A stretch of 35,250 nucleotides of DNA from Bacteroidota bacterium (GCA_023406915.1 JAEXTR010000343.1:1-35250), one strand, 5' to 3'. Counted from the first letter of the stretch, positions 10,062 to 30,993 are shown. Notes: generated by a model from the letters alone, not told the origin. Numbers and translations are program-made.

Positions 10062-10066
10062 TTACC

Positions 10067-10522
10067 TCACATTTTTGCGGTTTTAACAACTTTATAGCTT
10101 GAACTATCAATAACCGGAACAACCGGATAGCCAAAGTTCATTTGCAACAACTCCAGCTTCTCATCCTGCTCAGAAATCTGACTATTCTGATGCATGATGG
10201 TTTTATCCTGCTGAATATTTTGAGAGAGCAAAACCAAAGACATAATCAGCAAGATAGCAGCTGCGGAAGCGGATATCCATTGCACAACTGTTGCATATGG
10301 CTTCTTCTTTCTCTGTTCTTCCTTAATCAGCGTAAGTACATGATCATCAGCGGTTTCATCTTCCTGATAGTCCGCAAGGAGCTTTAATCCGGATAATGCT
10401 CTGTATAAAGCCCGGGCCTCTTCGTCATTGGCGAGGAGCAAAAACACCTCTGCTTCCTGCTCAATTTGTAGCTCACCATCAAGAAGTGATTGAATGCATA
10501 ATTGCTGATTTTCTGTTAGCAT
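10067..10522 (-). CDS. Putative anti-sigma factor (single TM, non-zinc type)
   Basis: Starts 1 nt after the ECF sigma stop. Helical N-terminus, one TM (WISASAAAILLIMSLVLLS), short external tail. No HxxxCxxC motif. The call is mainly positional. Confidence 0.55.
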   Translation of the reverse strand: MLTENQQLCIQSLLDGELQIEQEAEVFLLLANDEEARALYRALSGLKLLADYQEDETADDHVLTLIKEEQRKKKPYATVVQWISASAAAILLIMSLVLLSQNIQQDKTIMHQNSQISEQDEKLELLQMNFGYPVVPVIDSSSYKVVKTAKM

Positions 10523-10523
10523 A

Positions 10524-11075
10524 TTACTTCACCATTTTTTCAAGATACAGAATGAGTTTTTGCCTGATACGAAACAGTGCGCTTTTCACCTGAGATACCT
10601 CTAATCCAGTTACTACTGAAATCTCTTGATACGAAAGACCCGAATATTCTTTCAATAAGTATACTTCACGTAGCTGCTCCGGTATCTTGAGTAGGTAGTT
10701 CTGAATCAGATGGGCAACCTCGCTTCTTTCGTACACAGACTCCAGCGTATCAGCTTCAGGCAGTTCCAGAGCAGATATATCCTGCACTGAATAGGAATCC
10801 CTATGCGTTAGTTTTCTCCTGAAGTGCATATACACTGCATTCCGTGCAGACTTGAAGATATAGGATACTGCCGCACGTGAATCAGTGATCTTATTAAAGG
10901 ACTGATAACATCCGATAAAGACATCCTGCAGAATGTCTTCAGATAGCATTTTGTCATTTGTCATTTTTAAGATGTACTGATACACCGGTCTCTTAAAACG
11001 GAGATACAATTCAGTGAACAGGCTCTGTTCTTGAACTGGCTGCTGCACAGTGTTCCGATCATATAATGAATACAT
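10524..11075 (-). CDS. ECF-type RNA polymerase sigma factor
   Basis: Region 2 (LSEDILQDVFIGCYQSF) and region 4 (LPEQLREVYLLKEYSGLSYQEISVVTGLEVSQVKSALFRIRQKL); 183 aa. Confidence 0.88.
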   Translation of the reverse strand: MYSLYDRNTVQQPVQEQSLFTELYLRFKRPVYQYILKMTNDKMLSEDILQDVFIGCYQSFNKITDSRAAVSYIFKSARNAVYMHFRRKLTHRDSYSVQDISALELPEADTLESVYERSEVAHLIQNYLLKIPEQLREVYLLKEYSGLSYQEISVVTGLEVSQVKSALFRIRQKLILYLEKMVK

Positions 11076-13778: not shown

Positions 13779-14960
13779 CTACTTTTTTGGTGTGATGTAG
13801 GTCTCAATTGCCTCCTGATAGATGCTTATCAATTGTTGATATGCAACTTCAGGTGAGTACTTTTCTTTGAATTCTTGAAATGCTGTTTCACCCATTTGCC
13901 GGAGTTCTGTGGGGTGGTTCATTGACCATCGGATTTTTTCAATAAAGTCATGGAGACTCCCCACCTGAAAGAGAATGCCGGTTTCACCATTCCGTATTAG
14001 TTCAGGTATCACCCCAATATTCGATGCCAGAATTGGCTTTGCATAAGCAAAGGACTCAGGGATTGGCATTCCCATCCCTTCATACAATACCGAAGGGAAT
14101 AATACCAAAGCGGCTTTAAAAACCGTTTCAGCCAATTTATCTCTTTCCAGTACACCCAGATATTTCAGATTTGATATTTGCAATGACTCTAACTCAGATT
14201 GCAATGGACCCGCCCCGGCAACAACAAAATGATACTCCGGCAGTGCCTGCGCCGCCTTCATAACCAAATCAAAACCTTTCAGGGGGTCTAGTCTTCCAAA
14301 GTAAAGCAGATAATTATCGTTTGAGGGCGTTATCCGAATATCGGGTGTATGCGAAAAGTTTGGCTTTACCAATATCTTTTCCTCGGGTAAACCACCCTGT
14401 ACAAACAGCTTTTTACCAAAATGTGTCAAAGCAATAAATCTGCTTATACTCTTATCCCATACATTCCGTTTTCTCGCTTTCTCAATCGTGTGCGCCAGGT
14501 GGAAAGTATGGAAATATGAATCCCGATAACACTTTCGTTTCACCGAATGATACAATGAACGCCCAACACACTCTGTGCATACCGCCCCATCACGATAAAG
14601 CATTGAATTAGTGCATATAAGCCGATAGCTGTGAAGAGTCATCACCAACGGAATATTCTGATCCGTACATGCATCGACCACACTAGGTGATAGCAGCGGG
14701 TAAAAGTGATGAAGGTGACAGATATCAGGTTTAAAGGTTTTAATTTTTGACGTTAAATCATTATAACTCTGCCTGGACCAAATCGCATTCGAAACTAATG
14801 AGATTTTTTGGGGGATGGAAAAAGACTCAATATCTCTATTGTCTTGTAAGTATTGTTCTACAATATGCCCATTGTCATATAAAAGTTTTCTTTCATTCTC
14901 AACGACGGTCTCCTCCCCACCCCTGAGCGCGTACATATTATGAATTTGTAGTATTCTCAT
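13779..14960 (-). CDS. GT4-family glycosyltransferase
   Basis: N-terminus MRILQIHNMYALRGGEE. C-terminal E-x7-E region FPSVLYEGMGMPIPESFAYAKPILASNIGVIPELI. Confidence 0.85.
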   Translation of the reverse strand: MRILQIHNMYALRGGEETVVENERKLLYDNGHIVEQYLQDNRDIESFSIPQKISLVSNAIWSRQSYNDLTSKIKTFKPDICHLHHFYPLLSPSVVDACTDQNIPLVMTLHSYRLICTNSMLYRDGAVCTECVGRSLYHSVKRKCYRDSYFHTFHLAHTIEKARKRNVWDKSISRFIALTHFGKKLFVQGGLPEEKILVKPNFSHTPDIRITPSNDNYLLYFGRLDPLKGFDLVMKAAQALPEYHFVVAGAGPLQSELESLQISNLKYLGVLERDKLAETVFKAALVLFPSVLYEGMGMPIPESFAYAKPILASNIGVIPELIRNGETGILFQVGSLHDFIEKIRWSMNHPTELRQMGETAFQEFKEKYSPEVAYQQLISIYQEAIETYITPKK

Positions 14961-15004
14961 TTCTCGATATTTTTGTATACATGCTTAACTATGGAATCTG
15001 TCTT

Positions 15005-16162
15005 ATGTCTCATGCGAGTCCGGTTTTTTTTATTAATCACCTTCGAAATTATGACGATTTATCAACTGAAACAACCTCTTGTTATGTAAATCTTTCTGCT
15101 CCTCGATTCCACAAAAATATCAAAGGCTACAAACCAACACCTTTGGTTGAGTTACCAGGACTGGCTGCATCAATCGGAGTTGATAAGATTTTTATAAAAG
15201 ACGAATCAAAACGATTCCACCTCAAGGCATTTAAGTGCCTGGGGGCATCATTTGGTATTCATAGCGTTATTGGTAATAAAGGGGGGAGCGAGTTTGATCT
15301 TATTTGCAGTGCAACAGATGGTAATCATGGAAGAGCAGTGGCTTGGTATGCACGTCAAATTCAAAAGAAATGTGTAATCCTGGTGCCAATAGGGACCACA
15401 CAGCAGCGAATTGAGGCAATCAGGTCTGAAGGGGCAGAAGTGATCATTGTGAAGGGTGATTATGATACTACCGTAGAAATAGCTTTTCAATACTCCATTG
15501 AAAATAATGGATTACTGGTTCAGGATACTGCGTTCGACAATTATGAACTGATACCGCAACTCATTATGCAGGGATATACAACGATGATGGAAGAGATCAG
15601 GGAAGAATTAGAAATAAAGGGTTGGAAGAATAGTTTTGATTTGGTACTGATTCAAAGCGGCAATGGGACATGGGGGGCAGCTGTGGCATCTTACCTTCAT
15701 TCTGAAAGCAATAATTCAATACCACAGATCATTTCGGTTGAACCGTTTGAGTCTGATTGCTGCTTCAGTGCGGTTTTTTCAGGGAAAATCATTCAAACTC
15801 AAAAGTCTCAAAAAACTATGATGGCAGGATTGAATTGCGGTACGATATCCAAACTCGCATTCCCCATTTACAAAAGTGTTTTCTCTGGAATGTTGTTACT
15901 CAAAGAAGAACACACAATTAATGCGATGAGATTATTTGCATCACCATTAAAAAGCGATGCGGCTATTGAATCAGTGGAATCAGGTGCGGCAGGATTGGCG
16001 GGATTAATGGCGTTGACGAAGGACAAATCTTACGCAGACCTTAAAGAGTATCTGGGAATCGGCAAAAGGTCACGGGTTCTGATTTTCAATACTGAAGGAA
16101 TTACTGATCAATCAAATTATGACAAAATTGTAAAAAGACAGTTAAACTTTTTCAGGGATTGA
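15005..16162 (+). CDS. dpaL: PLP-dependent diaminopropionate ammonia-lyase-like enzyme
   Basis: IKDESKRFHLKAFKCLGASF (PLP lysine), ATDGNHGRAVAW, DYDTTVE and VQDTAFDNYELIPQLIMQGYTTM closely follow the YgeX/DpaL pattern. The track start is ATG 14981, only 20 nt from the divergent GT4 start; ATG 15005 (MSHASP...) is an equally good start. Confidence 0.75.
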   Translation: MSHASPVFFINHLRNYDDLSTETTSCYVNLSAPRFHKNIKGYKPTPLVELPGLAASIGVDKIFIKDESKRFHLKAFKCLGASFGIHSVIGNKGGSEFDLICSATDGNHGRAVAWYARQIQKKCVILVPIGTTQQRIEAIRSEGAEVIIVKGDYDTTVEIAFQYSIENNGLLVQDTAFDNYELIPQLIMQGYTTMMEEIREELEIKGWKNSFDLVLIQSGNGTWGAAVASYLHSESNNSIPQIISVEPFESDCCFSAVFSGKIIQTQKSQKTMMAGLNCGTISKLAFPIYKSVFSGMLLLKEEHTINAMRLFASPLKSDAAIESVESGAAGLAGLMALTKDKSYADLKEYLGIGKRSRVLIFNTEGITDQSNYDKIVKRQLNFFRD

Positions 16163-17273
16163 CTGATCGCAGGTATTTTTTTCGGTCAGTTAAAAATTTC
16201 TTCAACCTGGTGGCTTCCCTGTCAAGATCAAATCCACTTTTGCCAAGGAATAGATCGTTTTTGTGAGGTTCTCTTATCAGGCCAGATAAAGAATCTATTA
16301 CGGCAAAAAGAACATGCTCAGTCAAAACACTATCCCTGATCTGTACCATATAATTATGATACAGTGCAATTCCTTCTGGGCACTGTTTCAAGACATCGAT
16401 AATTTCATTTTTCCCATAGTAATCACCATCGGCAGATATATCATCCCACCTGTCGAAGTCCCAGGGAATAACATTAAACTTATTATCTGACATGCTTGTA
16501 TAGAGATAAAAGTTGTTATTAAAATTATCATGAAGCTTCAATGCGGCAGTGGCAGCATGATATCGCAGATATTGATTAATATCAATGATTTTGCTCAGAG
16601 ATTGATATGCCTGAATAGGGTTGGCAGAATCCACTGCCATCAACAGATCAGCAAGGGTACCAAAATTGTCATCCTCGGGATACTTTTTTTCAAAATTGTT
16701 TGAAATATTTGGTGACCCTTTGAGTGAAAACCTACCCTTAAACCCAAGCTGATACAATTCCTGTATATGAATCCCTTTTCGTACAAAGAAATCTTCCTTT
16801 ATCGGTTCGACAAGTACCGATAACAACTCAGCACCTTCGTTTATTTTTATCCGTACATACTTCTGTTTGAATGCAGGGAATCCCAGTTTACTATAGACAA
16901 GCTGAGCCACAGAGGTTTTCAGCATGGAATTATCCTCTGCCTGAGAGTTCAGATTAAATTCTTTCAGCCCCTCAATACTACTACCTCCTTGAAGGGCAAC
17001 CCGATAATTCCACCGAATGGTATATCGTGAGCTTGCTCCGGATGAGCGGATACGCCCAACTAACCTTCTGCCCTGATAATAAAACTCAGCCGTCACTGGT
17101 GCATCAATTGTTTTGTTGCCTAATAGTTGTTGGTATTCCTCTGGTTCAATAATGATTTGCAACAGCGGGACCTCTTCTCCTGGTTTCGTTGGATCATACT
17201 CCTCGATCTGGTCGCAACCGACGATAAACAGAATCAGAAAAGCAGTGATAACACTTTTCAGGTACTGATGCAT
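16152..17273 (-). CDS. CotH-kinase-family protein with a lipoprotein signal
   Basis: Lipobox LILFIVGC. CotH-like blocks: RIRSSGASSR...WNYRVAL, FNLNSQAEDNSMLKTSVAQLVYSKLGFPAFKQKYVRIKINE, QYLRYHAATAALKLHDNFNNNFYLYTS...KFNVIPWDFD. Confidence 0.7.
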   Translation of the reverse strand: MHQYLKSVITAFLILFIVGCDQIEEYDPTKPGEEVPLLQIIIEPEEYQQLLGNKTIDAPVTAEFYYQGRRLVGRIRSSGASSRYTIRWNYRVALQGGSSIEGLKEFNLNSQAEDNSMLKTSVAQLVYSKLGFPAFKQKYVRIKINEGAELLSVLVEPIKEDFFVRKGIHIQELYQLGFKGRFSLKGSPNISNNFEKKYPEDDNFGTLADLLMAVDSANPIQAYQSLSKIIDINQYLRYHAATAALKLHDNFNNNFYLYTSMSDNKFNVIPWDFDRWDDISADGDYYGKNEIIDVLKQCPEGIALYHNYMVQIRDSVLTEHVLFAVIDSLSGLIREPHKNDLFLGKSGFDLDREATRLKKFLTDRKKYLRSVNP

Positions 17274-17277
17274 AAAT

Positions 17278-18276
17278 TCAGAAAGCTACCATGAGTTGAG
17301 CTACATAGAATGAAAGATCAGATGAATATACTGATGATGCACGGTTTTTTGAGAATCTAAGGTCTGCGTTTAACATCAATCTGGCATCCTTATTAAAATA
17401 GATATTCAGCCCGATCATGGACTGGATTACCTGTTCACCTGGGATTTGAACATCTGGCCGGAAAATTCCTAGCGTTATAACAGGTTCCAGGCTCTTTACT
17501 ACCATTTTTTTAATTTCAAATGTATAAGATGTGATCAATCTTCCACCGAACGAGTAAACAGTTTCATCCAAACCGATTTTCCTTCTTCGTAAACCCTCAA
17601 TCGGGTCCTGTACATAGGATAGTTCAAGATCAACGAGACTACGTTCACCAAATCTGCTAATATCTACTGCAAACCCATTGCAGCCAATTTCTCCATTATA
17701 ACTTCTTTGCATACGTTCATAGCTGAAACCAATATTGAGCAGTGGAAAGTGATACTGATATCTTACAATACCACCATAGTATTGAGAATTATCCTTATAC
17801 AATGACACATAATATGTCATCGGGATATCTTCCGGGTCATCCTCATCATGTTTTCTGTAAACCATCAGACTGACACTTCTTCCTGAATACCCAAGTTCAG
17901 ATAGCCTGTCCGCGGTATATGAATGATCAACCATGGGCAATTCTTCTGTATCATAAAGATTTTCAAAGCCGAATGGTTTTTTAAGCATACCAACCCTGAC
18001 CTGAAAGTCTTTGGAATACTCAAACTTTGCAGAGAACTCTCTGAGCCTAACCGAATTATCAGCTGAGTTCCCCCTGAAATCCAGTTGTGCATCGATATAT
18101 TTGCTAACCTTGTAGTCAGCCTGAAATTTACCTTCAAAATATGTCTTTTGATTATTTTCTCCGACGATTTCATGATTATAATGGATATAACCAGTAGCCC
18201 CATATCCTGAAAATTTAATCTCCTGGGCTGAAATAATACTTGTAAAAAGGAGAAGGGAGAGGAATATTTTGTTCAT
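17278..18276 (-). CDS. Outer-membrane beta-barrel, OprO/OprP (porin O_P)-like
   Basis: Signal MNKIFLSLLLFTSIISAQE. Alternating amphipathic strands and a terminal ...LMVAF. VRLREFSAKFEYSKDFQVRVGMLKKPFGFENL resembles the porin O_P core (vGqfK.PfglE). Confidence 0.55.
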   Translation of the reverse strand: MNKIFLSLLLFTSIISAQEIKFSGYGATGYIHYNHEIVGENNQKTYFEGKFQADYKVSKYIDAQLDFRGNSADNSVRLREFSAKFEYSKDFQVRVGMLKKPFGFENLYDTEELPMVDHSYTADRLSELGYSGRSVSLMVYRKHDEDDPEDIPMTYYVSLYKDNSQYYGGIVRYQYHFPLLNIGFSYERMQRSYNGEIGCNGFAVDISRFGERSLVDLELSYVQDPIEGLRRRKIGLDETVYSFGGRLITSYTFEIKKMVVKSLEPVITLGIFRPDVQIPGEQVIQSMIGLNIYFNKDARLMLNADLRFSKNRASSVYSSDLSFYVAQLMVAF

Positions 18277-18287: not shown

Positions 18288-19037
18288 TTATGTCCTGTAC
18301 TTATATGCAATAACTTTTACAAAAAAGTGTGGAATACCAAGCAGGTACCGTTTCCATAGGCGTTTCGGGTCAATCCATAGCCGGTGTAACCATTCAATCC
18401 CAAACCGCTGCATCCAGATTGGGGCACGTGGCTTGAAATCTGTGAGGAATTCAAAAAAGCTGCCCACTGTGAGAGTGATCTTTGCATGTACTAATGATCT
18501 GTATTGGTGGTTAATCAGTTCCTGGGTGGGCGTCCCCAACCCTAGCATGAGAACACTTGCATTACTTTTATTAATTTGGGTTAGTATGTCTGGGGAAGGG
18601 GTATTGTCCCGGTCGAGGAATCCGGCTACTCTAAGATTTGGGAATTTTTTTGATAAAACTCCCGGCAAGAGTTGTATCGCCTTTGGGTCTCCGCCCCAAA
18701 AAAAGACTGAGTACCCCAGTTCTTCACACAAGGCAAGTACCTTATAGTTCAAGTCTGTGGCGTTTATGAAGTGACGAAAACCATGTCTGCCATAAAGCAT
18801 TTTTGATGCAAGGTACATTCCAATTCCATCTTCGTACCTGACATCTGAATCCAGAATCACTTGTTTCAAGCGTATATTTCTCTGCACTTCCATCAACAGA
18901 TAACTATTGATATATTGCACAGAAACCGGAGTGTCCGATTGAAGGCTTGTAGCGATTAAAGAAAGTATGTCATGATATCCAGCATCGATTACTGGGATAC
19001 CCATTAAATCCAGTTCAGAGAAATCAGAGATACTCAA
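18288..19037 (-). CDS. WecB/TagA/CpsF-family (GT26) glycosyltransferase
   Basis: YEDGIGMY, MLGLGTPTQE and PIWMQRFGIEWLHRLWIDPKRLWKRYL are family hallmarks. The longest start, TTG 19037, is 4 nt after the upstream stop; an alternative ATG lies at 19004. Confidence 0.85.
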   Translation of the reverse strand: MSISDFSELDLMGIPVIDAGYHDILSLIATSLQSDTPVSVQYINSYLLMEVQRNIRLKQVILDSDVRYEDGIGMYLASKMLYGRHGFRHFINATDLNYKVLALCEELGYSVFFWGGDPKAIQLLPGVLSKKFPNLRVAGFLDRDNTPSPDILTQINKSNASVLMLGLGTPTQELINHQYRSLVHAKITLTVGSFFEFLTDFKPRAPIWMQRFGIEWLHRLWIDPKRLWKRYLLGIPHFFVKVIAYKYRT

Positions 19038-19041: not shown

Positions 19042-22000
19042 CTATTTCACCACCGCTATCTTCTGAGTAACTATTTCATTCTTGTCGTCAGCCTTCATTA
19101 TGAATCTGGCAAAATAAACACCGTTTGCTATTGAGTCACCGTCTTGGTCTTTTCCATCCCAATAGATTCTGTTAAAGTCGTGCCTCAGATCAGTTTTTGG
19201 AATACTGATTTCTCTGATGAGTCTGCCGGCAATCGTATAGATTTTGATGAAAAATTCTTTGGGAATGGTGGTTAGTTTGAACGTGAAATATGTCTCATCT
19301 TTCATCGGGTTTGGATAATTATAGACATACGTCAGAGATGACTGAGATTCTACCGTAAATATCTTTTTAACACCAGATGTATCAGTAAATGAACCCGATG
19401 GATTCGTATACTGCACTTTTAATTGATACTTACCATCCTCTAACTCTGGTTTATACTGCACTTTTATTTTGGGATTGGCAGTATTAAATGAAGTAGTTAT
19501 CGAAGGATCATTGTGATAAATACGCGTATTATTCAGGAATATCTGAACAAGACCTGTATCAGCAGCTGTTAGTGCAGACGGATCATTATACACGACATCA
19601 ATAGTTGGTTTCGAAGAAACAAAATCACCGTCAAGGATATCAATATCATCAAAGGTAACGAATACTGAAGGGCGTGAAGTGTCTTGTGTGATCTTCAGTT
19701 CTCTACTGAAGGAATTATTATCTTCGTAGAGCTCTGAAACAGCATTTTGCGGATCGATTGTTACCACAAAAGTCATCTTATTTTGCTGTCCCACAGCTGT
19801 ATAGGTATGTGCAAACCGTTTCTTTGAGTTCTTCCCTAATGTATCAACCTGATAAGTAGCCAGTGTTGTCCGGGCATTATTTGGGTCAACGCCTTCTAAC
19901 ACCACCTGGAACTGCTTTGCCACAGAGAATCCGACATTATACACATCAAACATTACATCCACAGTCTCACCTTGCATAACCGAGTCCCTTGAGAGTGACA
20001 TTACCTGATAGTTAATTGCTAACTCAGGTAAGCCGTCAAAGTCAACAGCAGCCACTGCAAGAACTGGAGACTGCTTGAGATTGTTTGCATAGAAATTTGG
20101 CTGCAATCTGATGAATGGGTATTGCGTCGGATTAATTGAGGTCAACGAGAGTGCAGTATCAGCTGAAGTATGCTTCAGCAGCAATGCCTCACTTCCATCA
20201 TTCTTAATACCATACACATCGGTGATCAGTTTTGTGCCTGCGGGTAACTGACGTTTTATCGCCATTTCTCCCCAACGTGATGCCGGCCCGATTCTGGGGA
20301 ATTCTATGTGGCCGGAATCGGCGGGTATAGTTATTATCTTTTCTACTGTTGCTGGACCTGAAAAAAATATGTTTCGTTTTTCTGGAACTGAACCCATTGG
20401 GGCACCCTTTTTACCTAGCATACACCAGGATTCACGGTACTTGATTGAATCAGCATACAAGCTACCCATCTTTTCTAACGCTTTTCTTGCAATGGTTCCA
20501 GATACGAAACCAAGAACTGACTGCGCACCATCATCACAAATGGCAAATGCAACCACAGTGCCGTTTGGAAGAGAATCTATAAAACTATTTAATGCTGGTC
20601 CAGCTGTCGATGCTGGATAGAGGAAGTACCGGATTGAAGTGGGTTCAAGAGTTACCGTGTCTAAAACAGCCGCTGCCATACCCCAAAAGTATGTATTGGG
20701 TAATGTCTCTCTGTTATCAATGAGTAAAGAGACAAATGAGCCTTCGTACCAGCCTGCTGAAACCAGATTCAATTTGCGGGCTCTATCCGATAAACTCCAT
20801 AGCGACAATGAGGAATCATATCCAATATTAGTGCTTCCATAACCTTTTGCAGCATTCGAAGGCACATCGGCATACCACGTATATGGCACAGACTTATTAA
20901 GAAAGGACACAGACTCTGACCATTCCACTGATGGAATGTCTGGTTTTGTTTGCAGCCATAGTCTCTTATTAAGACTACCAGATGGGAAAGATATCCTCGT
21001 TGCCAACGAATCGTAGCTAATGACGGTTTCTGTACTATTCGAGAAAACAGCGGTAGTGTCAAGACGATATCGCATTTTCTGAATAGCGTTTGGCAGAAGA
21101 GATGTAGGATTAAGTACTGTAACATCATTTATAAGTGTCGAGTAATACGAATCCTGAAGCAAATTTCTTGTGCTAATTGAGTATACCGTATAGGTTATTG
21201 CAGTTTGATTATCACTTTTTGAATACTCATCTACAAGATTATCCGGGTCTATTACAATTCTCAGTTCATTCTGTCCAGGATACCCTTTTGCCGGAACCTG
21301 CAATCGCAAGGTGTCCTCAAGAGGTGGCGAAGCGATTTTTATATAATCGGTCGCGAACACAACCCCCTTATTTCGAAACTCAGTTTTCAGCGTGAGTGAG
21401 TCTTGAACTGGTGTACTACCACTGTTTTTTATTACAACTTTAAATAGTACTGAATCATAACTCTCATTAATATCCGTTTCCGGGAGATAAATATCTGATT
21501 CTGTAATTAAATAATTCGCTTTCTGAGGCAATCCTAACTGCACGATTGGATCACCAAACAACAAATTACAGTACAATAGAACTCTATTTACATCATTGAT
21601 GCCACTTTCCTGAAAGTTTTGAATCTTTGCCTCATAATGAGCTTTCCCCACTTCAATTACAGAGTCCTTGATCAATTTACTATAAAACAATCTGGGCATG
21701 CGAAGTGATGTTGAAAGATACCCCCAGCTCGTATTTCCAAGATAAGCTATGGCTTGACCATCTGTGAGATCTCTTACAAATAACTCACCAAAAGCATCAA
21801 TATCCGGTTCTGCAAACTTGCCCGTTGAGCAACCAAAATCCGAAATAAGTGGGTGTCGGTTATTAAACTTGTTCTTTAAATAGGATACTGAGTTAACTCC
21901 ATTATCCCATGTTTGAGTACCACTATGTCCAACATATGAAATATACACTCCCCCTTCTTGAATTGCATTATTTACAACAGCAAGAGAGAAGGGACCAAAA

Positions 22001-24411
22001 TTTGTTAATGGATTAACAGTTTTGTAAAAATGCTGTGCCCTTCCACCCAGGGGCTTCGCCAAATGCACATCTGTCATTACTGATTGATTAGCATTAAAAA
22101 TCTGTTGAAGCTCTCCGGTATTGTTCACATCACCGCCACTAAAAAACAATGCTGTTTTATTCCAAAAGTCCCTTGGTCGGGTTATATATGTCTCATGCTT
22201 TTGCTTGTATCTCAATACTTCTGCATCGGAATTAACCGGTATTCTTCCTACATACAATTGAGGAAAGACTGGGCTCAGATCTTCAAAGACAACAAACCAT
22301 GGATCACTTACAGGGTGCCCATACGTAAAAACATGATTTTGTTTCTTCTGTGCCGGTACAGGTGACCATTGTGATTTGTAATCATAAGTGGCATCACCCA
22401 CAAAAACAACATATGAAGGTTTTGGTGAAGTCCAATTAGAGAAGGCATATCTGATGAAATCCTTAGTGTTGATTGCAGAAGGTTGACCATACCCAAACTC
22501 ATCAATGATATCTTCTATGTACACAACACTGGTTCTGACATTATACCTGGACTTAATAAACTGGATATAGTCAGTCGCAACTGAAGGGAAACTCTTACTC
22601 GTGATGGCGATGTAATCACTTCCAACTGGGTTGCTCCTGATATTAGCAAATCTTTTCGATTGTATTAAAGTAGGTTTTATAATTCGATTGTCACCAACTA
22701 TATAATAGACATCATTCCCTTTTAATGTATCAGTAAATGTCAGCACTCCCTGAGAAATATTTGATGCGGAGATTTTCTTATATCCGTCGGTTACTTTATA
22801 AATAGTATAGGGGGAGTTTGAAACATTATATACCGCAACTACCCTTTCAGCTGCTGACACCGAATCTGGAATCGTAATTCGGATCGAGTCATTTACCATT
22901 TGATTGAATCGGTAGTAATCAACATCAACCCAGTCAAGCAACACCTGATAAAAATTCGCATTTGTCGGAAGACCATGTATCTTTACTGAATTGGTACCAT
23001 TGATTAAAATTGATGACTGCTGTGTGGTTTCAAGATTCACAGTCTGACGGTAATCAAATTTAATGGAATCGAGCACCGCAGAACCATTTACACTTATACC
23101 CATCAAATGTGAGTTAGTATAAACATCCGCAGCATTACTTATCCCCCTTGCTATGAACTTTGCAGATGTACCGGGGACTGGTGAATCAACCAAAAAGGAT
23201 GCAGATGCACTACCATTTTTACCAAAAGCAATCCACGTCCAAACCTTGTGCTCCTGCCACATTGGTAACTGAGTTGTTGCAGCAGTTGCATCATAGTACC
23301 ATAATCGCTGATCCCGCTCTAAATGAACCTTGGCTAAATGACTCTTTACCGTATCCTGCAATGAGGTGTTAAAAACACTCTTATAAAAAACCCGTTTCCC
23401 ATTTTCACCGCCCCAGGTAATCCAGGCAAATGATGTATCTGAGTACAAATCATAATAATTTAAGTAGTCTGACCCTTTGGGCACAATATCCCTATAGTTC
23501 GAAGATCCATAATTTTGTTGAGCAAAAAACTCAAAGTATTCATTTGGATCAAGCACAGCATCTTGATTACCCTGAAAGTGAAGAGGCTTCTCTTTGCCCT
23601 GATGCATGAATCGAATCGAACTTGGGTTTATGCTGCCAATGTCAATTCCATATCCAGACAAATCTTGCCCATAAATTCTATAAACGCCATCCTGTGCGAT
23701 CCCAATTTTCAGATAATCTTTAGAATAATCAATCCAATCTCCTGTTGAGTCCGCTGAAGTAAAAGTGGTTCTGAACTTTTCCGCTTCGCGCCAGTTAAGG
23801 ATAATTCCATCATAGCTAAACTTTTCTTTGGCATCTGACGGCGTTGAGCCACCCAAGAAAGGTGAATCATAATCTAATTTTAATACCCCTCGTGACAACT
23901 CAACTAGCTCTCTCTTTTTCCAATCATACTTATGCGTAGTAATTTTTAGCGCAACAACATAAAACTCTCTTATTCTGTGATATCCCTGCACTTCGATATT
24001 TGGTTTCTCAATTGATAAATCAGCATATAAGTCAGTATTTATCAGTGATGAATATTCATATAATGTTGAGTCTCCCAAATCAATCAGTGTTGGAGAATTT
24101 TTAATAATTACGTTCGAATATCGCTTTTCTTCCAACATTTCAATTCTGGGTGCAACCTTGGAACCAGGAGGAATCGCGATAAATACTATCTTGTGTGGCA
24201 AAACTGGCTTTCCACCTTCTGCCTCATTGTAGTGCTCAAAATAATCAAGTATCAATCCATCAGTGCCCTGAGTAATATTCATGTTTACCTGCGGAACTAC
24301 AAATTCAATTCGCAACCCCGTTTCAGAATCAGTATACTGTGTTATGTCTATCTGGGCATAGTTATTCATGTAAACCAAAACGACCGATATAAGAAAAACG
24401 AGTCTTTTCAT
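19042..24411 (-). CDS. 1,789-aa secreted multidomain protein: PorU/gingipain-type N-terminal region, peptidase C25 domain, CARDB-like, FAM3/ILEI-like, CARDB-like, Ig-like, T9SS sorting domain
   Basis: Signal MKRLVFLISVVLVYMNNYAQ. DYLKIGIAQDGVYRIYGQDLSGYGIDIGSINPSSIRF resembles the PorU/C25 N-terminal region. See the sub-features for the remaining domains. Confidence 0.85.
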   Translation of the reverse strand: MKRLVFLISVVLVYMNNYAQIDITQYTDSETGLRIEFVVPQVNMNITQGTDGLILDYFEHYNEAEGGKPVLPHKIVFIAIPPGSKVAPRIEMLEEKRYSNVIIKNSPTLIDLGDSTLYEYSSLINTDLYADLSIEKPNIEVQGYHRIREFYVVALKITTHKYDWKKRELVELSRGVLKLDYDSPFLGGSTPSDAKEKFSYDGIILNWREAEKFRTTFTSADSTGDWIDYSKDYLKIGIAQDGVYRIYGQDLSGYGIDIGSINPSSIRFMHQGKEKPLHFQGNQDAVLDPNEYFEFFAQQNYGSSNYRDIVPKGSDYLNYYDLYSDTSFAWITWGGENGKRVFYKSVFNTSLQDTVKSHLAKVHLERDQRLWYYDATAATTQLPMWQEHKVWTWIAFGKNGSASASFLVDSPVPGTSAKFIARGISNAADVYTNSHLMGISVNGSAVLDSIKFDYRQTVNLETTQQSSILINGTNSVKIHGLPTNANFYQVLLDWVDVDYYRFNQMVNDSIRITIPDSVSAAERVVAVYNVSNSPYTIYKVTDGYKKISASNISQGVLTFTDTLKGNDVYYIVGDNRIIKPTLIQSKRFANIRSNPVGSDYIAITSKSFPSVATDYIQFIKSRYNVRTSVVYIEDIIDEFGYGQPSAINTKDFIRYAFSNWTSPKPSYVVFVGDATYDYKSQWSPVPAQKKQNHVFTYGHPVSDPWFVVFEDLSPVFPQLYVGRIPVNSDAEVLRYKQKHETYITRPRDFWNKTALFFSGGDVNNTGELQQIFNANQSVMTDVHLAKPLGGRAQHFYKTVNPLTNFGPFSLAVVNNAIQEGGVYISYVGHSGTQTWDNGVNSVSYLKNKFNNRHPLISDFGCSTGKFAEPDIDAFGELFVRDLTDGQAIAYLGNTSWGYLSTSLRMPRLFYSKLIKDSVIEVGKAHYEAKIQNFQESGINDVNRVLLYCNLLFGDPIVQLGLPQKANYLITESDIYLPETDINESYDSVLFKVVIKNSGSTPVQDSLTLKTEFRNKGVVFATDYIKIASPPLEDTLRLQVPAKGYPGQNELRIVIDPDNLVDEYSKSDNQTAITYTVYSISTRNLLQDSYYSTLINDVTVLNPTSLLPNAIQKMRYRLDTTAVFSNSTETVISYDSLATRISFPSGSLNKRLWLQTKPDIPSVEWSESVSFLNKSVPYTWYADVPSNAAKGYGSTNIGYDSSLSLWSLSDRARKLNLVSAGWYEGSFVSLLIDNRETLPNTYFWGMAAAVLDTVTLEPTSIRYFLYPASTAGPALNSFIDSLPNGTVVAFAICDDGAQSVLGFVSGTIARKALEKMGSLYADSIKYRESWCMLGKKGAPMGSVPEKRNIFFSGPATVEKIITIPADSGHIEFPRIGPASRWGEMAIKRQLPAGTKLITDVYGIKNDGSEALLLKHTSADTALSLTSINPTQYPFIRLQPNFYANNLKQSPVLAVAAVDFDGLPELAINYQVMSLSRDSVMQGETVDVMFDVYNVGFSVAKQFQVVLEGVDPNNARTTLATYQVDTLGKNSKKRFAHTYTAVGQQNKMTFVVTIDPQNAVSELYEDNNSFSRELKITQDTSRPSVFVTFDDIDILDGDFVSSKPTIDVVYNDPSALTAADTGLVQIFLNNTRIYHNDPSITTSFNTANPKIKVQYKPELEDGKYQLKVQYTNPSGSFTDTSGVKKIFTVESQSSLTYVYNYPNPMKDETYFTFKLTTIPKEFFIKIYTIAGRLIREISIPKTDLRHDFNRIYWDGKDQDGDSIANGVYFARFIMKADDKNEIVTQKIAVVK
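19045..19329 (-). other. T9SS type-A / FlgD-Ig-like C-terminal sorting domain
   Basis: YNYPNPMKDETYFTFKL...FFIKIYTIAGRLIREI...IYWDGKDQDGDSIANGVYFARFIM. Confidence 0.8.
19687..20019 (-). other. CARDB-like domain 2
   Basis: GETVDVMFDVYNVGFSVAKQFQVVLEGV...MTFVVTIDPQNAVSELYEDNNSFS. Confidence 0.55.
20377..20769 (-). other. FAM3/PANDER/ILEI-like domain (aa about 1215-1345)
   Basis: GMAAAVLDTVTLEPTSIRYF...ALNSFIDSLPNGTVVAFAICDDGAQSV...ARKALEKMGSLYADSIKYRESWCMLGKKGAPMG aligns by eye with FAM3 GLNIALVNG...FD...LLKFIRPLHEGTLVFVASYDD...TRKLFSELGSRNAKELAFRDSWVFVGAKG. Confidence 0.6.
21178..21474 (-). other. CARDB-like domain 1
   Basis: SVLFKVVIKNSGSTPVQDSLTLKTEF...NELRIVIDPDNLVDEYSKSDNQ. Confidence 0.55.
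21532..22629 (-). other. Peptidase C25 catalytic region with an intact His/Cys dyad
   Basis: DYIAITS...YVVFVGDATYDYK...LYVGRIPV. His829 is in YISYVGHSGTQTW (codon 21927-21925). Cys861 is in LISDFGCSTGKF (codon 21831-21829). Confidence 0.75.
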
Positions 24412-24519
24412 AGCAAAACTTTCGCTGCAATTGATTGATGTATAGTTCTTATGAGGAGCTCTTTTATAATATTGAGAGCTGAGAAACTCCGTGCACTGAT
24501 TCTGCGTTGTTGCGGAGTT

Positions 24520-25647
24520 TTATCTATCATACAGATAGAGCTTTTTCATCATCTTGATAAAATTAAAACGTGGATTATTTTCAACAAAGTAATTGTAGGC
24601 TTCTTTTCCCATTTTAAGCCTTACATCCTCTTGCGATATAAGAATGTTTAGGTAGTTAATTCCTTCCATAATATTGTCTCTATTAAAGACGAATCCCCCC
24701 TGACTTGACATAAGCACCTCTTCAATTCCACTGACCTTTGTTGCAACTATCGGTTTGCCAGCTGCCATTACCTCCCAGAGCACTAATGGGAAGCCCTCAT
24801 AATCAGAGGTTAAAATGAAAGCATCAATATACTGAAATATTCTGCGTACATCCTGACGGTATCCTAAAAACCATACATCCTGATATTCTGAGTATGCTTC
24901 CTTGTAATAATTCAGATACTCCCCCTCACCAATGACTAACAAGATGGTACTTGAAGATTTTCTAACGCTCTTATACATTTCAAGACATCGATCGACTCGT
25001 TTTTGTGGTAAGATCCTTCCTGTGAAACAAAGAACAACAACCCCATCATCCTTCATTCTTTGTATTCTTGAGTATATCTCATCATCATTATCATTTGAAC
25101 TATCCTGATGAATACTTTCTGCACCAGGACTTCCAACAACAACGTCAGAAAAGTATGGCATTTCGGACTGCAGATAGATTTTATTGGGATCTGAAGGAGC
25201 AATTGCAGTAATCTTATTAAGCTTAAGGAGCAATATTAGTAATGCTCTTAATACCATCTGCCAGGAAGACGCATAATACTCAGATTTTATTAGTTGACCA
25301 TGGAAGTGAAATATTAGCTTCTTTTTGAGAAATACATTGGTAATCAGACTTATAAGAAGTGGTTTCAGAGCATGTGTATGGACAACATCTGCGTTACTAC
25401 TTCTTATGACATTCATATAATTTAGAATTGCCTTCAGTGGTACTTTTTTTCGCATCCCTTTTACAGGTTTACCGATGTATCCATTCTTCTCGATAGCAAC
25501 TGAAACCTCTGATTCCTCTTCGTATAGAATAATATGATGAAAAGTACCATCATTTGTCTCGTCAATAATTGCTCTTATTGTATTAAATATACCATCTGAG
25601 CGGCCTGTCAGGTCTTTGGTAAAATGAACTATAACTTTTTTATTCAC
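24520..25647 (-). CDS. GT4-family glycosyltransferase
   Basis: ILTSDYEGFPLVLWEVMAAGKPIVATKVSGIEEVL (E-x7-E region); 375 aa. Confidence 0.8.
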   Translation of the reverse strand: MNKKVIVHFTKDLTGRSDGIFNTIRAIIDETNDGTFHHIILYEEESEVSVAIEKNGYIGKPVKGMRKKVPLKAILNYMNVIRSSNADVVHTHALKPLLISLITNVFLKKKLIFHFHGQLIKSEYYASSWQMVLRALLILLLKLNKITAIAPSDPNKIYLQSEMPYFSDVVVGSPGAESIHQDSSNDNDDEIYSRIQRMKDDGVVVLCFTGRILPQKRVDRCLEMYKSVRKSSSTILLVIGEGEYLNYYKEAYSEYQDVWFLGYRQDVRRIFQYIDAFILTSDYEGFPLVLWEVMAAGKPIVATKVSGIEEVLMSSQGGFVFNRDNIMEGINYLNILISQEDVRLKMGKEAYNYFVENNPRFNFIKMMKKLYLYDR

Positions 25648-25696
25648 TTATAAGCCACTTTATGAATTATGGTCATCTATACTGCCTGTATTTAAC

Positions 25697-26743
25697 TCAA
25701 CTATTGAGCATTGAAGAATATAAGAACTCATACTCTTTCACCATCCGATCAATCGAGTATAGCACCTCAGCTTTCTTCAGACGATCATCCTGGTACTGGT
25801 AATGCTTTGCAATTTCAGTATGAAGTACATACATTTTTTCTGCAAGAGCATGTTCATTTCCAGAATCAAATGAAATCCATGAACCTAATGGCTCACCTAT
25901 TTCTTTCAACGCTGGGACATCCGAAGTGATCACGGGTATTGATGCGGCTACACCTTCAATTGCACTTAAGCCGAAAGCTTCATCACGTGATGGTTGAACT
26001 AGTATGTCATACTTATAGAGCTTCTTATAAATATCGTTTCTTCTATGGAGACCTAAGAATGTTACTCTTTCGGCAATGCTTAACTCACTACTTAATTCAT
26101 TTAAATACTGTAACGATTTACCAACACCTATAAAATCAACTGAAATCAATAGCCCATACCTCTTTTCAAGAACCTTAATAGCTCTGAGAAGAATATCCTG
26201 ACCCTTTTTCACATGATCAAGCCTTCCGACTTGGACGACTTTATTTATTTCGCTCTTTTTTTCGCAAGGTGACTTCACAACTTTACTAAAATCAATTCCG
26301 TTCAGAATAACTCTACAATTTTTGACGCCAGACTTTTTTACTTCTTGCATTAGACTGTGCGAAACAGCCACAACTGAACCGTATTTTGTTATTAAATCAT
26401 TGCATTCATTAAAGCCATGAATTGTTAGAACTGTTCGTCTCTTTTGAACTAGAGGTAAGAAACGTATAATTGTTGTATCATGGCAATGGATAATATCCGG
26501 CTTAAGGTAATTAAGAATGAAATTCAATTTGATAAATGGGAGTAAATTTTTTGATCCTGAGGTTCTTTTCAGTAGGTGTACGTTCACACCCGGTTGCAGG
26601 TCGTTTAGCAAATCTTGATCATAGTCATTATCAATAACAATTAAAGATACTGTATTATTGACTGATTGACCATTGATGAGATCAACTACTAAATTCTCTG
26701 CCCCACCACTATTGAGATTAAACCGCAGGTGTACTATTTTCAT
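25697..26743 (-). CDS. GT4-family glycosyltransferase
   Basis: MKIVHLRFNLNSGGAENLV and LVQPSRDEAFGLSAIEGVAASIPVITSDVPALKEI. The start overlaps the Wzx stop by 4 nt. Confidence 0.8.
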   Translation of the reverse strand: MKIVHLRFNLNSGGAENLVVDLINGQSVNNTVSLIVIDNDYDQDLLNDLQPGVNVHLLKRTSGSKNLLPFIKLNFILNYLKPDIIHCHDTTIIRFLPLVQKRRTVLTIHGFNECNDLITKYGSVVAVSHSLMQEVKKSGVKNCRVILNGIDFSKVVKSPCEKKSEINKVVQVGRLDHVKKGQDILLRAIKVLEKRYGLLISVDFIGVGKSLQYLNELSSELSIAERVTFLGLHRRNDIYKKLYKYDILVQPSRDEAFGLSAIEGVAASIPVITSDVPALKEIGEPLGSWISFDSGNEHALAEKMYVLHTEIAKHYQYQDDRLKKAEVLYSIDRMVKEYEFLYSSMLNS

Positions 26744-28164
26744 TTTATAAAATTATCTCTTGATAAAATGTCATTTTTTAGGGTGATAATCTCATTTTTA
26801 TAATGCAAAACCATTTGAGTCAGTATTAAAATAATAACAAGGATTGCAGCACCATAATAAACAGGAATCATCCCATGATAGTACTCTACAATATGTATAG
26901 CGATGAGAAGACTTATAGGTATAGAAATCTCCTGTAATAACATTCGATAATATTTGAATAAGGATAGTGGTACAAGTTTACGTGCAACAAATCGTAGATA
27001 AAGGTAATTCAGCAATAGAGAAAGTAAGAGCAAAGTGATGATAAAAGTATCGATGGATATACTCAATACATACACTGTAACAAAGGATACTATTACCAGG
27101 CGAAAGACCGTCCAAAGAAAACCTAAGTCTGTTCTGCCTTTAGCTACCTGAAGCGCTGCAATAGGAATCCCAAGTGCCATAACAACCATTATATAAGCCA
27201 ATATTCTTAGTACGAATGCAGAACCTGTATACTGTGATCCATACACTATTGTTATCATATCTTTCGGGAATAGAATTAGTGGAAGAAAAGCCACAATATT
27301 CAGAATAATGATGAGTCTTGATGACTTCATCACAGATGCTACCATGCCAAGATTTTCCTTTGTTTTTGATAGCTTTGCTGCCAATGGAAAATACAATCCA
27401 CTGTTAACTATCCCGCTCAGTTTCAGTACGAGGGTTTTCATCAACGTATAACTCCCCAGATCAGCCATACCAATAAATTTTCCAATTAATAGTGTGTCGA
27501 CTTGCTCTGATAGGAAATCCAAAAGGCGGCCACCAAATTGATAAAAGCCGATTTTCAAATGAGGAGATAAATGCTGGGTCTTAAACCTACTCGTGATCTG
27601 ATGTGACTTTCGAAGAACGAAAACAAAACCAAAGTGACTTATAAATGTGAAGACTGTGCTTGAGATTACAAGACTATAAATACCCGTTCTTGAGTAGACA
27701 GCAATAATTGCCAACACAAGTGAAGTAGTTGCCGCAAATATCTCTAGGAGGGCAATCACCCTGAATTCCAACTCTTTCTGTAACAGTGTTTTGGCATACC
27801 TACCATACCCTGAGAAGAGTAAATTAACTGCAAGTGCCTTAATCACAATAGACAATGAATAACTTCCGTAAAACTCACCAAGAAGTCCTGCCCCAATAAA
27901 CGCAACTACAAAGAGTCCTGCTCCGATTATTAAATTGAACCAAAATACGGCTGAATGCTCTTCGGGTGAAAGCTCCTGTTTATAAAATACTGCAGAAAAC
28001 AATCCAAAATCCCCAATCATATCCAGTAACTGGATGCTTAGTAATGCAATACTGAATGCCCCAAAACCAGCTGGTTCGATAAAACGACTTACTATCAGTA
28101 TTAAAAGGAATTGAGATACTGATTTGTAAATGTTTGATAGAGATGACCAAAAAATATTGTTCAT
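26740..28164 (-). CDS. wzx: Wzx-type oligosaccharide flippase (MOP / polysaccharide biosynthesis protein family)
   Basis: 474 aa with about 12-14 TM segments. The N-terminus NIFWSSLSNIYKSVSQFLLILIVSRFIEPAGFGAFSIAL is typical of the Polysacc_synt family. Confidence 0.8.
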   Translation of the reverse strand: MNNIFWSSLSNIYKSVSQFLLILIVSRFIEPAGFGAFSIALLSIQLLDMIGDFGLFSAVFYKQELSPEEHSAVFWFNLIIGAGLFVVAFIGAGLLGEFYGSYSLSIVIKALAVNLLFSGYGRYAKTLLQKELEFRVIALLEIFAATTSLVLAIIAVYSRTGIYSLVISSTVFTFISHFGFVFVLRKSHQITSRFKTQHLSPHLKIGFYQFGGRLLDFLSEQVDTLLIGKFIGMADLGSYTLMKTLVLKLSGIVNSGLYFPLAAKLSKTKENLGMVASVMKSSRLIIILNIVAFLPLILFPKDMITIVYGSQYTGSAFVLRILAYIMVVMALGIPIAALQVAKGRTDLGFLWTVFRLVIVSFVTVYVLSISIDTFIITLLLLSLLLNYLYLRFVARKLVPLSLFKYYRMLLQEISIPISLLIAIHIVEYYHGMIPVYYGAAILVIILILTQMVLHYKNEIITLKNDILSRDNFIK

Positions 28165-29769: not shown

Positions 29770-30993
29770 CTATTTGTTTTTGAATTGTGGAATTACAGAG
29801 CTGACAACATCCTTGTGAGCCATGAGCAACAGCATTTTCAGTTTTACATAATCACTACGGAAATAAAAATATCCTGGGTGGGTTGAGTTGAAAACTCCCG
29901 ATCCGGAATCCTTGATCAGATACCACACCACACCATTCCTGTTTACCGATCCGATGATATGGACCAGATGATCATCAGTCGTAGTTTTATTCAGAAACCG
30001 AAAATACCTTGCATCATCGTTGATCGAATTGGCAGCAATATCAAACGTCGGCACAATTGCTAACCCTGCTGGACCGTCTATTCCAGGCTCAGAAACATCT
30101 CCGCCAATGGTCACACTAACCCCTTTTTCCAATGATGCATTAATAATCTTCATGAAGTCCTCAACCGGGAGGTTGAAGTAGTCTTTACTTCTTCGCCAGT
30201 TATCAGGCACATCATAGAGTGAATATTCATGGAATGGCTGATTCAGCACAGAAATGCACATCACGTAGTCATCCAACTTCAGGGGGATATAATCGTTCAG
30301 AAACTGTTTCGGGGTAATCGTTTTCCCTTCGTATGCAAACTCAACAGGTGGAACACCCATGTAATGGTCCAGAATTGCACGAATTGTCTTAATACCATTA
30401 TCCGGGTTCCAGTCACCTGATGTCTTTAAATAACTGAGATACTGCTTCATTTCATCATACATTTTCTCATGATCGTACACAGCTTTCCCGTTCTTCCCGT
30501 CATACACGGATTCCGGCACTATTCCATATTTCACCCATAGTTCAGTCACAGCATCCGCCTGACTTCCTTCCGGGAAAATTGTCTTACCCCTTGTTACAAT
30601 ATAACTTCTTGCCTTCTCCACAAACTCCCAGTAAGCGGTGAACATTTCAGAGAGTTTTAACTCTTTACCAGTTGTGCGCAGAATCTCTGATTCCAGAAAT
30701 GAGGTAGTTGCAAAATCCCAACATGTACTGGTTCTACCCTGATTTATAGGAGGTGTGTGTTTTAGCACCTTAAATTCACTGTTCGTTTTTGGAGCATCGG
30801 TATTTGAAAAGTCAACCTTAAAGGTCAAACGCTCAGGTACCAGATCATTCTTTGCATCCAGCACGGTAGCAATTGAATCCCAGAACTGATTTTTATACGT
30901 TTTAAATACTCCTTTATCATACTGCTGAGCCGGTATGAGAGTAGCAAAAACCAAAACCAAACCAGCCACCAAACCCATTCTATTCTTTATCAT
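29770..30993 (-). CDS. pepC: Peptidase C1B (aminopeptidase C / bleomycin hydrolase-like) with an N-terminal signal peptide
   Basis: Catalytic Cys context NQGRTSTCWDFATTSFLESE. His context DDHLVHIIG. Hydrophobic N-terminus GLVAGLVLVFATLIPAQQ. Confidence 0.75.
   Translation of the reverse strand: MIKNRMGLVAGLVLVFATLIPAQQYDKGVFKTYKNQFWDSIATVLDAKNDLVPERLTFKVDFSNTDAPKTNSEFKVLKHTPPINQGRTSTCWDFATTSFLESEILRTTGKELKLSEMFTAYWEFVEKARSYIVTRGKTIFPEGSQADAVTELWVKYGIVPESVYDGKNGKAVYDHEKMYDEMKQYLSYLKTSGDWNPDNGIKTIRAILDHYMGVPPVEFAYEGKTITPKQFLNDYIPLKLDDYVMCISVLNQPFHEYSLYDVPDNWRRSKDYFNLPVEDFMKIINASLEKGVSVTIGGDVSEPGIDGPAGLAIVPTFDIAANSINDDARYFRFLNKTTTDDHLVHIIGSVNRNGVVWYLIKDSGSGVFNSTHPGYFYFRSDYVKLKMLLLMAHKDVVSSVIPQFKNK

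Follow-up and report, generated by a model that had tools for sequence, protein, structure and literature searches.

In Porphyromonas gingivalis, PorU serves both as the peptidase that acts on the C-terminal domain (CTD) of type IX secretion system (T9SS) cargo and as a sortase-type transpeptidase, attaching the anionic lipopolysaccharide (A-LPS) that is supplied by PorZ (PMC11285876); in the resulting linkage the C terminus of the cargo is amide-bonded to a 2,3-diamino-uronic linking sugar (PMC7468200). Anchoring of T9SS cargo is understood only for this organism and Tannerella forsythia, in terms of PorU, PorZ and A-LPS. Here we describe a PorU-related gene in a 35,250-nucleotide stretch of DNA from a Bacteroidota bacterium (GCA_023406915.1, JAEXTR010000343.1:1-35250), the whole of which we refer to as the window. 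The gene (19042..24411, minus strand) encodes a PorU2-like protein of peptidase family C25 with 1,789 aa, a typical member of a large lineage that is visible in databases and experimentally unstudied. What is new is its setting, in which a WecG-type glycosyltransferase gene lies beside it within a Wzx/GT4 glycan operon and the protein itself contains a conserved PANDER-type domain; throughout the class a PorU-type enzyme is joined to a lectin-like module and encoded in a glycan operon, and it is this combination that makes the gene worth following.

The open reading frame (ORF) begins with ATG and is uninterrupted in both the ORF list and its translation, and the initial annotation was right to treat it as one real gene, to which we add that it lies on the minus strand. 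Judged by its sequence, an ORF of 1,789 codons with hundreds of homologues is far beyond chance. A protein search returned approximately 43 clusters of full-length homologues of 1,715-1,830 aa (two of about 2,440 aa). They are 31-63% identical to the query, align with 84-100% of its length and are assigned, where named, to Ignavibacteriaceae, Ignavibacteriales or Melioribacter. A genome scan with one genome per GTDB species gave at least 590 candidate stretches, and among the best 80, which were examined, nearly all match close to the full length of the query where the contig permits, a handful lying on truncated contigs. Most of these 80 are labelled Ignavibacteria, about 12 are generic Bacteroidetes or Bacteroidota metagenome-assembled genomes (MAGs), and four carry other labels (Chlorobiaceae, Chitinophagaceae, Bacillota and 'bacterium'). 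The same architecture of about 1,790 aa is thus present in at least 80 species-level genomes, mostly of Ignavibacteria and including the cultured Stygiobacter electus, and the size and domain train that had been called unusual are not so. Nor is the excess of some 500-600 aa an oddity, since these proteins, which we refer to as giants, are collinear with Bacteroidota PorU2 proteins of 1,650-1,740 aa, so that what the giant has in excess of PorU is shared by its whole family; as far as the alignments indicate, the domain train is the standard architecture of a PorU2-type family. Base composition reveals no foreign signature in the giant gene, the only lower G+C content being that of the GT4 and flippase genes, and promoter and terminator scans of its operon gave results at chance level.

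The region predicted initially to belong to family C25 (21532-22629) does so, Pfam PF01364 matching aa 600-958 (21538..22614, minus strand, as are all other features of the protein) with an E value of 7e-52, 177.3 bits against a gathering score of 23, and coverage of profile positions 1-373 of 374. The two catalytic residues that had been named, His829 (codon 21925-21927) and Cys861 (codon 21829-21831), are both kept and correctly aligned, within the contexts Gly828-His829-Ser830 (YVG-H829-SGTQTW) and Phe859-Gly860-Cys861 (DFG-C861-STGKF). When a family profile built from 41 full-length relatives is compared with P. gingivalis PorU (6za2), the GHSG of the giant aligns with GHGG of PorU, and Cys861 aligns with chain residue 688. 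Provided that the deposited chain is numbered with an offset of 2, this residue is Cys690 as published, the position changed to Ala in the catalytic mutant described for this enzyme (C690A, PMC5562754). Both residues are invariant in the 41 full-length giants and in 25 further PorU2 and PorU sequences, and the G-H-S-G-T and D-F-G-C-S-T-G motifs are invariant or at least 90% conserved across sequences that are 25-63% identical. The caspase-like fold is also recovered by Foldseek, with matches to RgpB 1cvr (E 8e-16, TM-score 0.60 on the target) and to 4rbm and 6i9a (E 4e-12). The conservation of the dyad and its motifs indicates purifying selection on catalysis, and the product of the gene is probably a C25 enzyme of the PorU branch that is competent for catalysis; the earlier preference for an active enzyme over a decayed adhesin is borne out, in that the invariant dyad makes a catalytic role appear far more likely.

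The relationship to PorU is best seen with the family profile; a search of PDB sequences with the single sequence found FAM3 proteins only, and the profile was needed to find PorU and the gingipain prodomains. The profile matches 6za2 with an E value of 5.5e-34 in two blocks, the first aligning aa 573-969 with PorU residues 374-789 (the catalytic domain) and the second aligning profile positions 1579-1792, which comprise an immunoglobulin (Ig)-like domain and the CTD, with residues 932-1154 (domain E 1.2e-8). An AlphaFold model of aa 1-1000 (predicted local distance difference test, pLDDT, 88.4; predicted TM-score 0.88) has PorU 6za2 as its top Foldseek match (E 2.8e-30, 835 aligned columns), followed by RgpB, Kgp and the gingipain prodomains. 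The order of domains is that of PorU (N-terminal beta-sandwich region, C25, Ig and CTD) with the addition of an insertion of about 600 aa. By profile and predicted structure, therefore, the giant is a PorU-type and not a gingipain-type C25 enzyme, and of the initial description as PorU/gingipain-like the first half stands and the second does not, with a PorU-type region of about 370 aa intervening where a gingipain has none.

The remaining parts of the protein can be assigned with varying precision. A signal peptide had been recognized at the start and is present (aa 1-19, MKRLVFLISVVLVYMNNYA; 24355..24411), with cleavage predicted before Gln20; this residue is kept in 38 of the 41 relatives, and published work on Ignavibacterium album reports Gln at position +1 in a high fraction (PMC5837995). 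The next part is a gingipain-propeptide-like domain (aa 20-211; 23779..24354), which the family profile relates to the RgpB prodomain 4ief (E 6e-10) and the Kgp prodomain 5mun (E 1e-7), with Foldseek TM-scores of approximately 0.56-0.64 to chains of the same two entries. A prodomain-like N terminus of about 200 aa is found in most giants, at least one ILEI-bearing relative (P0045) being without it, and also in the canonical PorU of Ignavibacteria. The PorU-type N-terminal beta-sandwich region occupies aa 220-590 (22642..23754) and is seen in the AlphaFold model; the segment quoted for it initially (YLKIGIAQDGVYRIY) aligns with the N terminus of PorU and falls within the part that NCBIfam matches to PorU and PorU2 (aa 220-1068).

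The insertion relative to PorU (aa ~970-1578) sits between the catalytic domain and the Ig and CTD portions, and consists, in order, of a CARDB-like beta-sandwich (aa 960-1079; 21175..21534), a beta-sandwich without family assignment (aa 1080-1204; 20800..21174), a FAM3/PANDER (ILEI) domain, a further unassigned beta-sandwich (aa 1354-1459; 20035..20352) and a second CARDB domain (aa 1462-1575; 19687..20028). Pfam recognizes CARDB in two stretches (E 3.4e-15), the best of which is aa 1462-1569, and the same region has profile matches to the CARDB-type structures 2l0d, 2kut and 3idu; the second stretch coincides with the first sandwich. An AlphaFold model of aa 960-1700 is confident (pLDDT 89.4), shows aa 1080-1204 as all-beta, and places the two unassigned sandwiches on either side of the ILEI domain. 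Compared as a whole by Foldseek, this model matches generic trains of Ig and macroglobulin (MG) domains only (complement C5 and alpha-2-macroglobulin, TM-score ~0.15), a result which, for a predicted structure, says only that this is a chain of beta-sandwiches.

Downstream of the insertion are the Ig-like domain common to PorU (aa 1579-1690; 19342..19677), defined by the profile alignment with 6za2, and a T9SS sorting domain of PorU/PorZ-like type (aa 1699-1789; 19045..19317); the canonical PorU of Ignavibacteria covers the giants' profile positions 1580-1793. The sorting domain falls short of the cut-off for a type A CTD (PF18962, 16.8 bits against 27; TIGR04183 is unreported), and Pfam places FlgD_ig (aa 1706-1766), Por_Secre_tail (aa 1699-1770) and Big_13 there, all below their gathering scores. 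Several giant orthologues do exceed the PF18962 cut-off, the NCBIfam model of PorZ finds the C terminus with an E value of 3.6e-11, the C-terminal beta-sandwich aligns with a known CTD, that of PorU, and the motifs P1700-N-P1702, G1764, Y1766 and K1784 (PNP/GxY/K) are invariant in the 41 relatives. The CARDB-like, ILEI-like, CARDB-like, Ig-like and sorting segments listed initially are thus all present by Pfam and the family profile; the list was incomplete, omitting the prodomain-like domain and the two beta-sandwiches that flank ILEI.

The FAM3/PANDER (ILEI)-type domain (aa ~1205-1350; 20362..20799) is a candidate glycan-binding module. Pfam ILEI (PF15711) matches aa 1244-1337 with an E value of 7.5e-15 and 55.6 bits against a gathering score of 27, profile matches to FAM3C, FAM3B and FAM3A, the stem domain of POMGnT1 and the TMEM2 hyaluronidase range from 7e-18 (FAM3C) to 1.7e-11, and Foldseek gives a TM-score of 0.64 to FAM3B 2yop. 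The PANDER fold binds N-acetylglucosamine (GlcNAc) and mannose in POMGnT1 and FAM3 proteins (PMC9802357). The giant's copy resembles FAM3B/C, the POMGnT1 stem and the GG-type domain of TMEM2/CEMIP2 in its fold and in its (R/W)-G, D-D-G and R-x-S-W motifs, conserved among giants as W/R-G1244, D1294 and R1326-x-S-W1329; the first of three reported sugar contacts appears to be Trp rather than Arg in 35 of the 41 giants, the equivalence being taken from the alignment. It differs from all of these in being bacterial and internal to a peptidase, and its sugar binding is only predicted. By analogy, the domain may position the glycan made by the operon in which the gene lies.

That operon is the most informative feature of the locus and was missed in the initial annotation. 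The window contains a tightly packed same-strand array consisting of a MOP/Wzx flippase (26740-28164, with ten transmembrane-like segments), two GT4 glycosyltransferases (25697-26743 and 24520-25647), the giant, a WecG/TagA/CpsF-family glycosyltransferase (18288..19037), a beta-barrel protein of 332 aa (17278-18276) and a CotH-kinase-like lipoprotein (16152-17273), all on the minus strand. The flippase and GT4 assignments are from Pfam and NCBIfam, and that of the WecG-type gene, which begins 4 nt past the stop codon of the giant, is from PF03808 (E 1e-42) and TIGR00696 (above cut-off). The WecG association is class-wide: among related loci with at least 1.2 kb of upstream flank, a WecG homologue adjoins the giant in about 63 of 65 by tblastn, usually immediately upstream on the same strand, and ORF clustering finds it as the same-strand neighbour at position -1 in 39 loci. 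In 79 related loci, GT4 genes are present in 56 and flippases in 36, a block encoding tetratricopeptide repeat (TPR), DUF4292 and Peptidase_M23 proteins lies further upstream in about 30, and Wzy-like genes with multiple transmembrane segments occur in some. These glycan-linked loci include giants of 31-48% identity. The sugar genes vary between lineages in the manner of O-antigen-type loci and differ upstream of the giant even in its nearest relative (locus L087, 63% identity). Within the window, G+C content is lowest in both GT4 genes and the flippase (24000-27500; 0.35-0.37 against ~0.41), and low G+C together with variable sugar genes is typical of rapidly exchanged O-antigen-type cassettes.

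Members of the WecG family, in the synthesis of enterobacterial common antigen and teichoic acid, transfer N-acetylmannosamine or N-acetylmannosaminuronic acid to lipid-linked GlcNAc. The class of this sugar is the same as that of the linking sugar of T. forsythia, a suggestive parallel by analogy and not evidence. The gene order giant-WecG-barrel-CotH is common only to the window and L087, and no other locus contains the barrel and CotH genes, whose membership of the system is therefore doubtful. The barrel protein has a signal peptide, is porin-like by a marginal resemblance to OprP/OprO, comes from a family so small that it has about 100 representatives, and has no PDB relative beyond the marginal OprP match; the CotH-like protein downstream of it carries a lipoprotein signal (...IVGC).

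Proteins named PorU2 in Bacteroidota are the closest relatives of the giants. In eight of ten PorU2 proteins the giants' profile aligns as a single hmmsearch domain from positions ~225 to 1783, and the two groups, represented for PorU2 by Ekhidna sp. To15, Niastella populi and a Fluviicola MAG, are collinear from the PorU-type N terminus through C25, the insertion, Ig and CTD. They share the His/Cys dyad and are of similar length, and the giants score higher on the PorU2 model than on the PorU model. A neighbour-joining tree of the shared region resolves canonical PorU, the giants and Bacteroidota PorU2 as three clades, although it is crude and midpoint-rooted, with an unreliable branching order. 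On these comparisons the giants appear to be a lineage sister to, and collinear with, Bacteroidota PorU2. The giants differ in forming their own clade with scores below the PorU2 cut-off, in mostly having the prodomain-like N terminus, and in a PANDER domain that Pfam ILEI recognizes; the corresponding region of PorU2 is divergent and rich in insertions, and aligns to the giants' profile without being recognized by Pfam ILEI. They also differ in their neighbours, the giants having WecG and glycan genes without PorV2, and PorU2 having PorV2 without glycan genes. PorV2, a PorV/PorQ-family barrel by NCBIfam (NF052325, 522 bits), is directly upstream of PorU2 in all three Bacteroidota loci (L003 8920-10014, L089 6854-7963 and L090 6910-8001). 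It is 47-48% identical between genera, and PorV2-PorU2 constitutes a two-gene module for which no publication was found.

We propose that the giant is a second CTD peptidase or transpeptidase, exported by the T9SS and coupled to a surface glycan encoded at its own locus, a reading in which our confidence is evenly balanced. The protein would be exported by Sec with removal of the signal peptide before Gln20, then cross the outer membrane by the T9SS and remain on the cell surface. The prodomain-like domain would probably keep the enzyme latent until export, in the zymogen manner of the gingipains; the PDB entry for PorU, 6za2, is itself entitled 'dimeric latent PorU'. At the surface, Cys861 and His829 would cleave the CTDs of some T9SS cargo and, as PorU does, join the C terminus so formed to an amine of a glycolipid at the surface. 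The acceptor glycan would be the product of the operon's Wzx flippase and its GT4 and WecG/TagA-type transferases, and the train of beta-sandwiches with its PANDER lectin-like domain would hold it near the active site, a task performed in P. gingivalis by a separate protein, PorZ. A more specific form of this proposal, which we put forward tentatively and think somewhat unlikely in all its details, is that the giant is a PorU-type transpeptidase whose built-in glycan-presenting module replaces PorZ. It would attach some of the CTD proteins to a dedicated glycan, made by the operon and varying between lineages, and WecG would add the sugar that bears the point of attachment or lies next to it.

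Several observations weigh against this proposal. The protein scores below the cut-offs of both curated models, with 240.4 bits over aa 231-965 on NCBIfam NF033707 (T9SS sortase PorU; cut-off 420), where other giants score 260-278, and 365.9 bits over aa 220-1068 on NF052324 ('putative T9SS sortase PorU2'; cut-off 450), where other giants score 386-419 and Bacteroidota PorU2 713-891; because of this shortfall the public names of the giants are generic ('C25 family cysteine peptidase' or 'T9SS sorting domain-containing protein'). No PorV, PorV2, PorQ or PorZ lies within 10 kb of any giant in more than 80 related loci, and the window has no PorV-like sequence, whereas a PorU-like enzyme would be expected to have a membrane partner. 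No assembly containing both a canonical PorU and a giant was found from the accession blocks and assembly identifiers of ten clusters and two contig look-ups. The three Bacteroidota PorU2 loci examined have no glycan genes nearby. A literature search found no paper mentioning PorU2 and no experiment on giants or PorU2, the latter being a database prediction only; one apparent hit is a typographic artefact in which 'PorU' is followed by reference number 29. GtfC, the A-LPS transferase of P. gingivalis, was considered as a WecG-type enzyme and rejected, as the literature assigns it to GT2 and thus lends a WecG link no direct support. Finally, the glycan genes could lie beside the giant because functions of the envelope are co-regulated and not because a substrate is shared, and if the link is co-regulation only, the giant is one more uncharacterized C25 peptidase.

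Among alternatives, we regard as unlikely that the giant is a conventional T9SS-secreted degradative protease with a gingipain-like role, cargo of the system and not a component, with its lectin-like and beta-sandwich domains targeting glycoproteins or proteins embedded in polysaccharide. The giant resembles the gingipains RgpB and Kgp (1cvr, 4rbm, 4ief and 5mun) in its catalytic fold and dyad, in the fold of a prodomain at its N terminus and in its T9SS CTD, the combination found in gingipain zymogens, and this explanation also accommodates the missing PorV-type partner and the presence of other CTD-bearing secreted hydrolases in the window and related loci. However, gingipains have prodomain and catalytic domain adjacent, whereas in the giant the PorU-type region separates them; Pfam finds no haemagglutinin/adhesin domains in the giant; and its structural similarity by Foldseek is far weaker to gingipain (E 8e-16) than to PorU (E 2.8e-30). 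The PorU-type region together with the PorU-type Ig and CTD tail gives a PorU-like structure, and strict, single-copy, class-wide synteny with WecG and glycan genes is atypical of nutritional proteases. The prodomain, since it is also present on canonical Ignavibacteria PorU, is no argument for a gingipain-like role.

Two genes of the related loci raise the question of a dedicated maturation or anchoring enzyme acting on one neighbouring substrate, as in a sortase-substrate cassette with a small CTD protein, or in assembly of a glycosylated surface layer. A protein of about 224 aa with a Por_Secre_tail CTD as its only domain, a candidate dedicated substrate, is encoded directly downstream of the giant on the same strand in 21 of 79 loci (for example L013, 15248-16051, and 20 others). 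Among 71 other loci, 43 have after the giant a gene for an outer-membrane-like protein of 447 aa with a signal peptide (L001, 16239-17582, and 46 other loci in the alignment), and in the 21 loci the smaller gene stands between it and the giant. The position of the one and the high conservation of the other favour such a cassette, but neither gene is present in the window or in L087, and the small CTD protein, being absent from most loci, cannot be a universal substrate; we consider this explanation quite improbable. Across Ignavibacteria the 447-aa protein keeps 62-92% identity, a conservation far above that of the giant; no Pfam family includes it, and its only match, a weak one, is to Leptospira ImpL63. 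The 332-aa and 447-aa proteins were both considered as relatives of PorV, PorV2 or PorQ and rejected, with no NCBIfam PorV-family match, hhalign probabilities of no more than 3% and, for either, nothing in the PDB beyond the marginal OprP match; the window's barrel compared with PorV2 gave 2%, and the two are unrelated. The two barrel families show weak N-terminal similarity to each other (probability 29%).

It is very unlikely, in our view, that the giant is simply the single housekeeping PorU of the organism in an enlarged form. Such an origin would fit a protein that, leaving aside the insertion, is PorU-like throughout, and would fit the finding of no other PorU in the window and no assembly with both proteins. 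However, the lower matches of our first search include genuine PorU proteins (P0056, P0057 and P0059; 904-1,294 bits on NF033707), and a search with P0056 showed that a PorU of about 1,324 aa is abundant in MAGs labelled Ignavibacteriaceae or Ignavibacteria. Two long contigs carry canonical porU followed by porV and a gene for a CTD protein of about 1,015 aa. The giants, at 240-278 bits on the same model against 900-1,290 for canonical PorU, form a separate clade and are never beside PorV. Because Ignavibacteria have a separate canonical PorU-PorV pair, the giants are, on sequence grounds, a paralogue lineage beside it, with co-occurrence of the two inferred at the level of the class only. That the giant is instead a surface adhesin or lectin without catalysis, its peptidase scaffold being dead, might be suggested by the many Ig-like domains and the lectin-like domain, but is scarcely credible given that His829, Cys861 and their flanking motifs are so nearly invariant at 25-63% identity.

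The window contains a number of other genes. A 611-aa protein (4378-6213, plus strand) with Endonuclease_I, Ig-like domains and a CTD that passes the Pfam cut-off for Por_Secre_tail is likely to be a T9SS-secreted nuclease, and its presence shows that the T9SS is in use in this organism. A diaminopropionate ammonia-lyase (14981-16162, plus strand; 369 bits, above cut-off) lies on the opposite strand between the CotH gene and a further GT4 gene (13779-14960), an arrangement kept in L087. Regulatory genes on the minus strand (903-4050, 9288-11075 and 11130-13727) encode a sigma-54 response regulator with its histidine kinase; an extracytoplasmic function (ECF) sigma factor, accompanied by a TonB-C protein and what may be an anti-sigma factor; and an NMT1/PAS histidine kinase. 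A C1-like cysteine peptidase of the bleomycin-hydrolase type (29770-30993) and a DUF4836 protein (32586-34133), both on the minus strand, have no NCBIfam assignment.

The placement of the giant within a class-wide Wzx-type glycan operon points to a concrete enzyme and a concrete anchor that can be tested for a second route of attachment, and the giants offer a functional handle on PorU2 and PorV2, which are otherwise database predictions. If the more specific form of the proposal is correct, and taken together with PorU2 and PorV2, many T9SS bacteria would run two parallel sorting systems aimed at different anchors. In relation to the described components of such systems, the giant resembles PorU (PG0026, 6za2, NF033707) in its N-terminal beta-sandwich, its C25 domain with aligned His and Cys, and its Ig domain with a CTD of the uncleaved type, and resembles the PorU of Ignavibacteria in its prodomain-like N terminus; unlike PorU, it has the insertion, a score below the cut-off, no adjacent PorV and a paralogue clade of its own. 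The likeness to PorZ of the P. gingivalis attachment complex is a proposed functional analogy only, namely presentation of a glycolipid acceptor to a sortase, and the sequence relationship is confined to the CTD, where the giant matches the C terminus of the PorZ model. PorZ is a separate protein with two beta-propellers, whereas in the giant the putative glycan module is fused into the enzyme itself.

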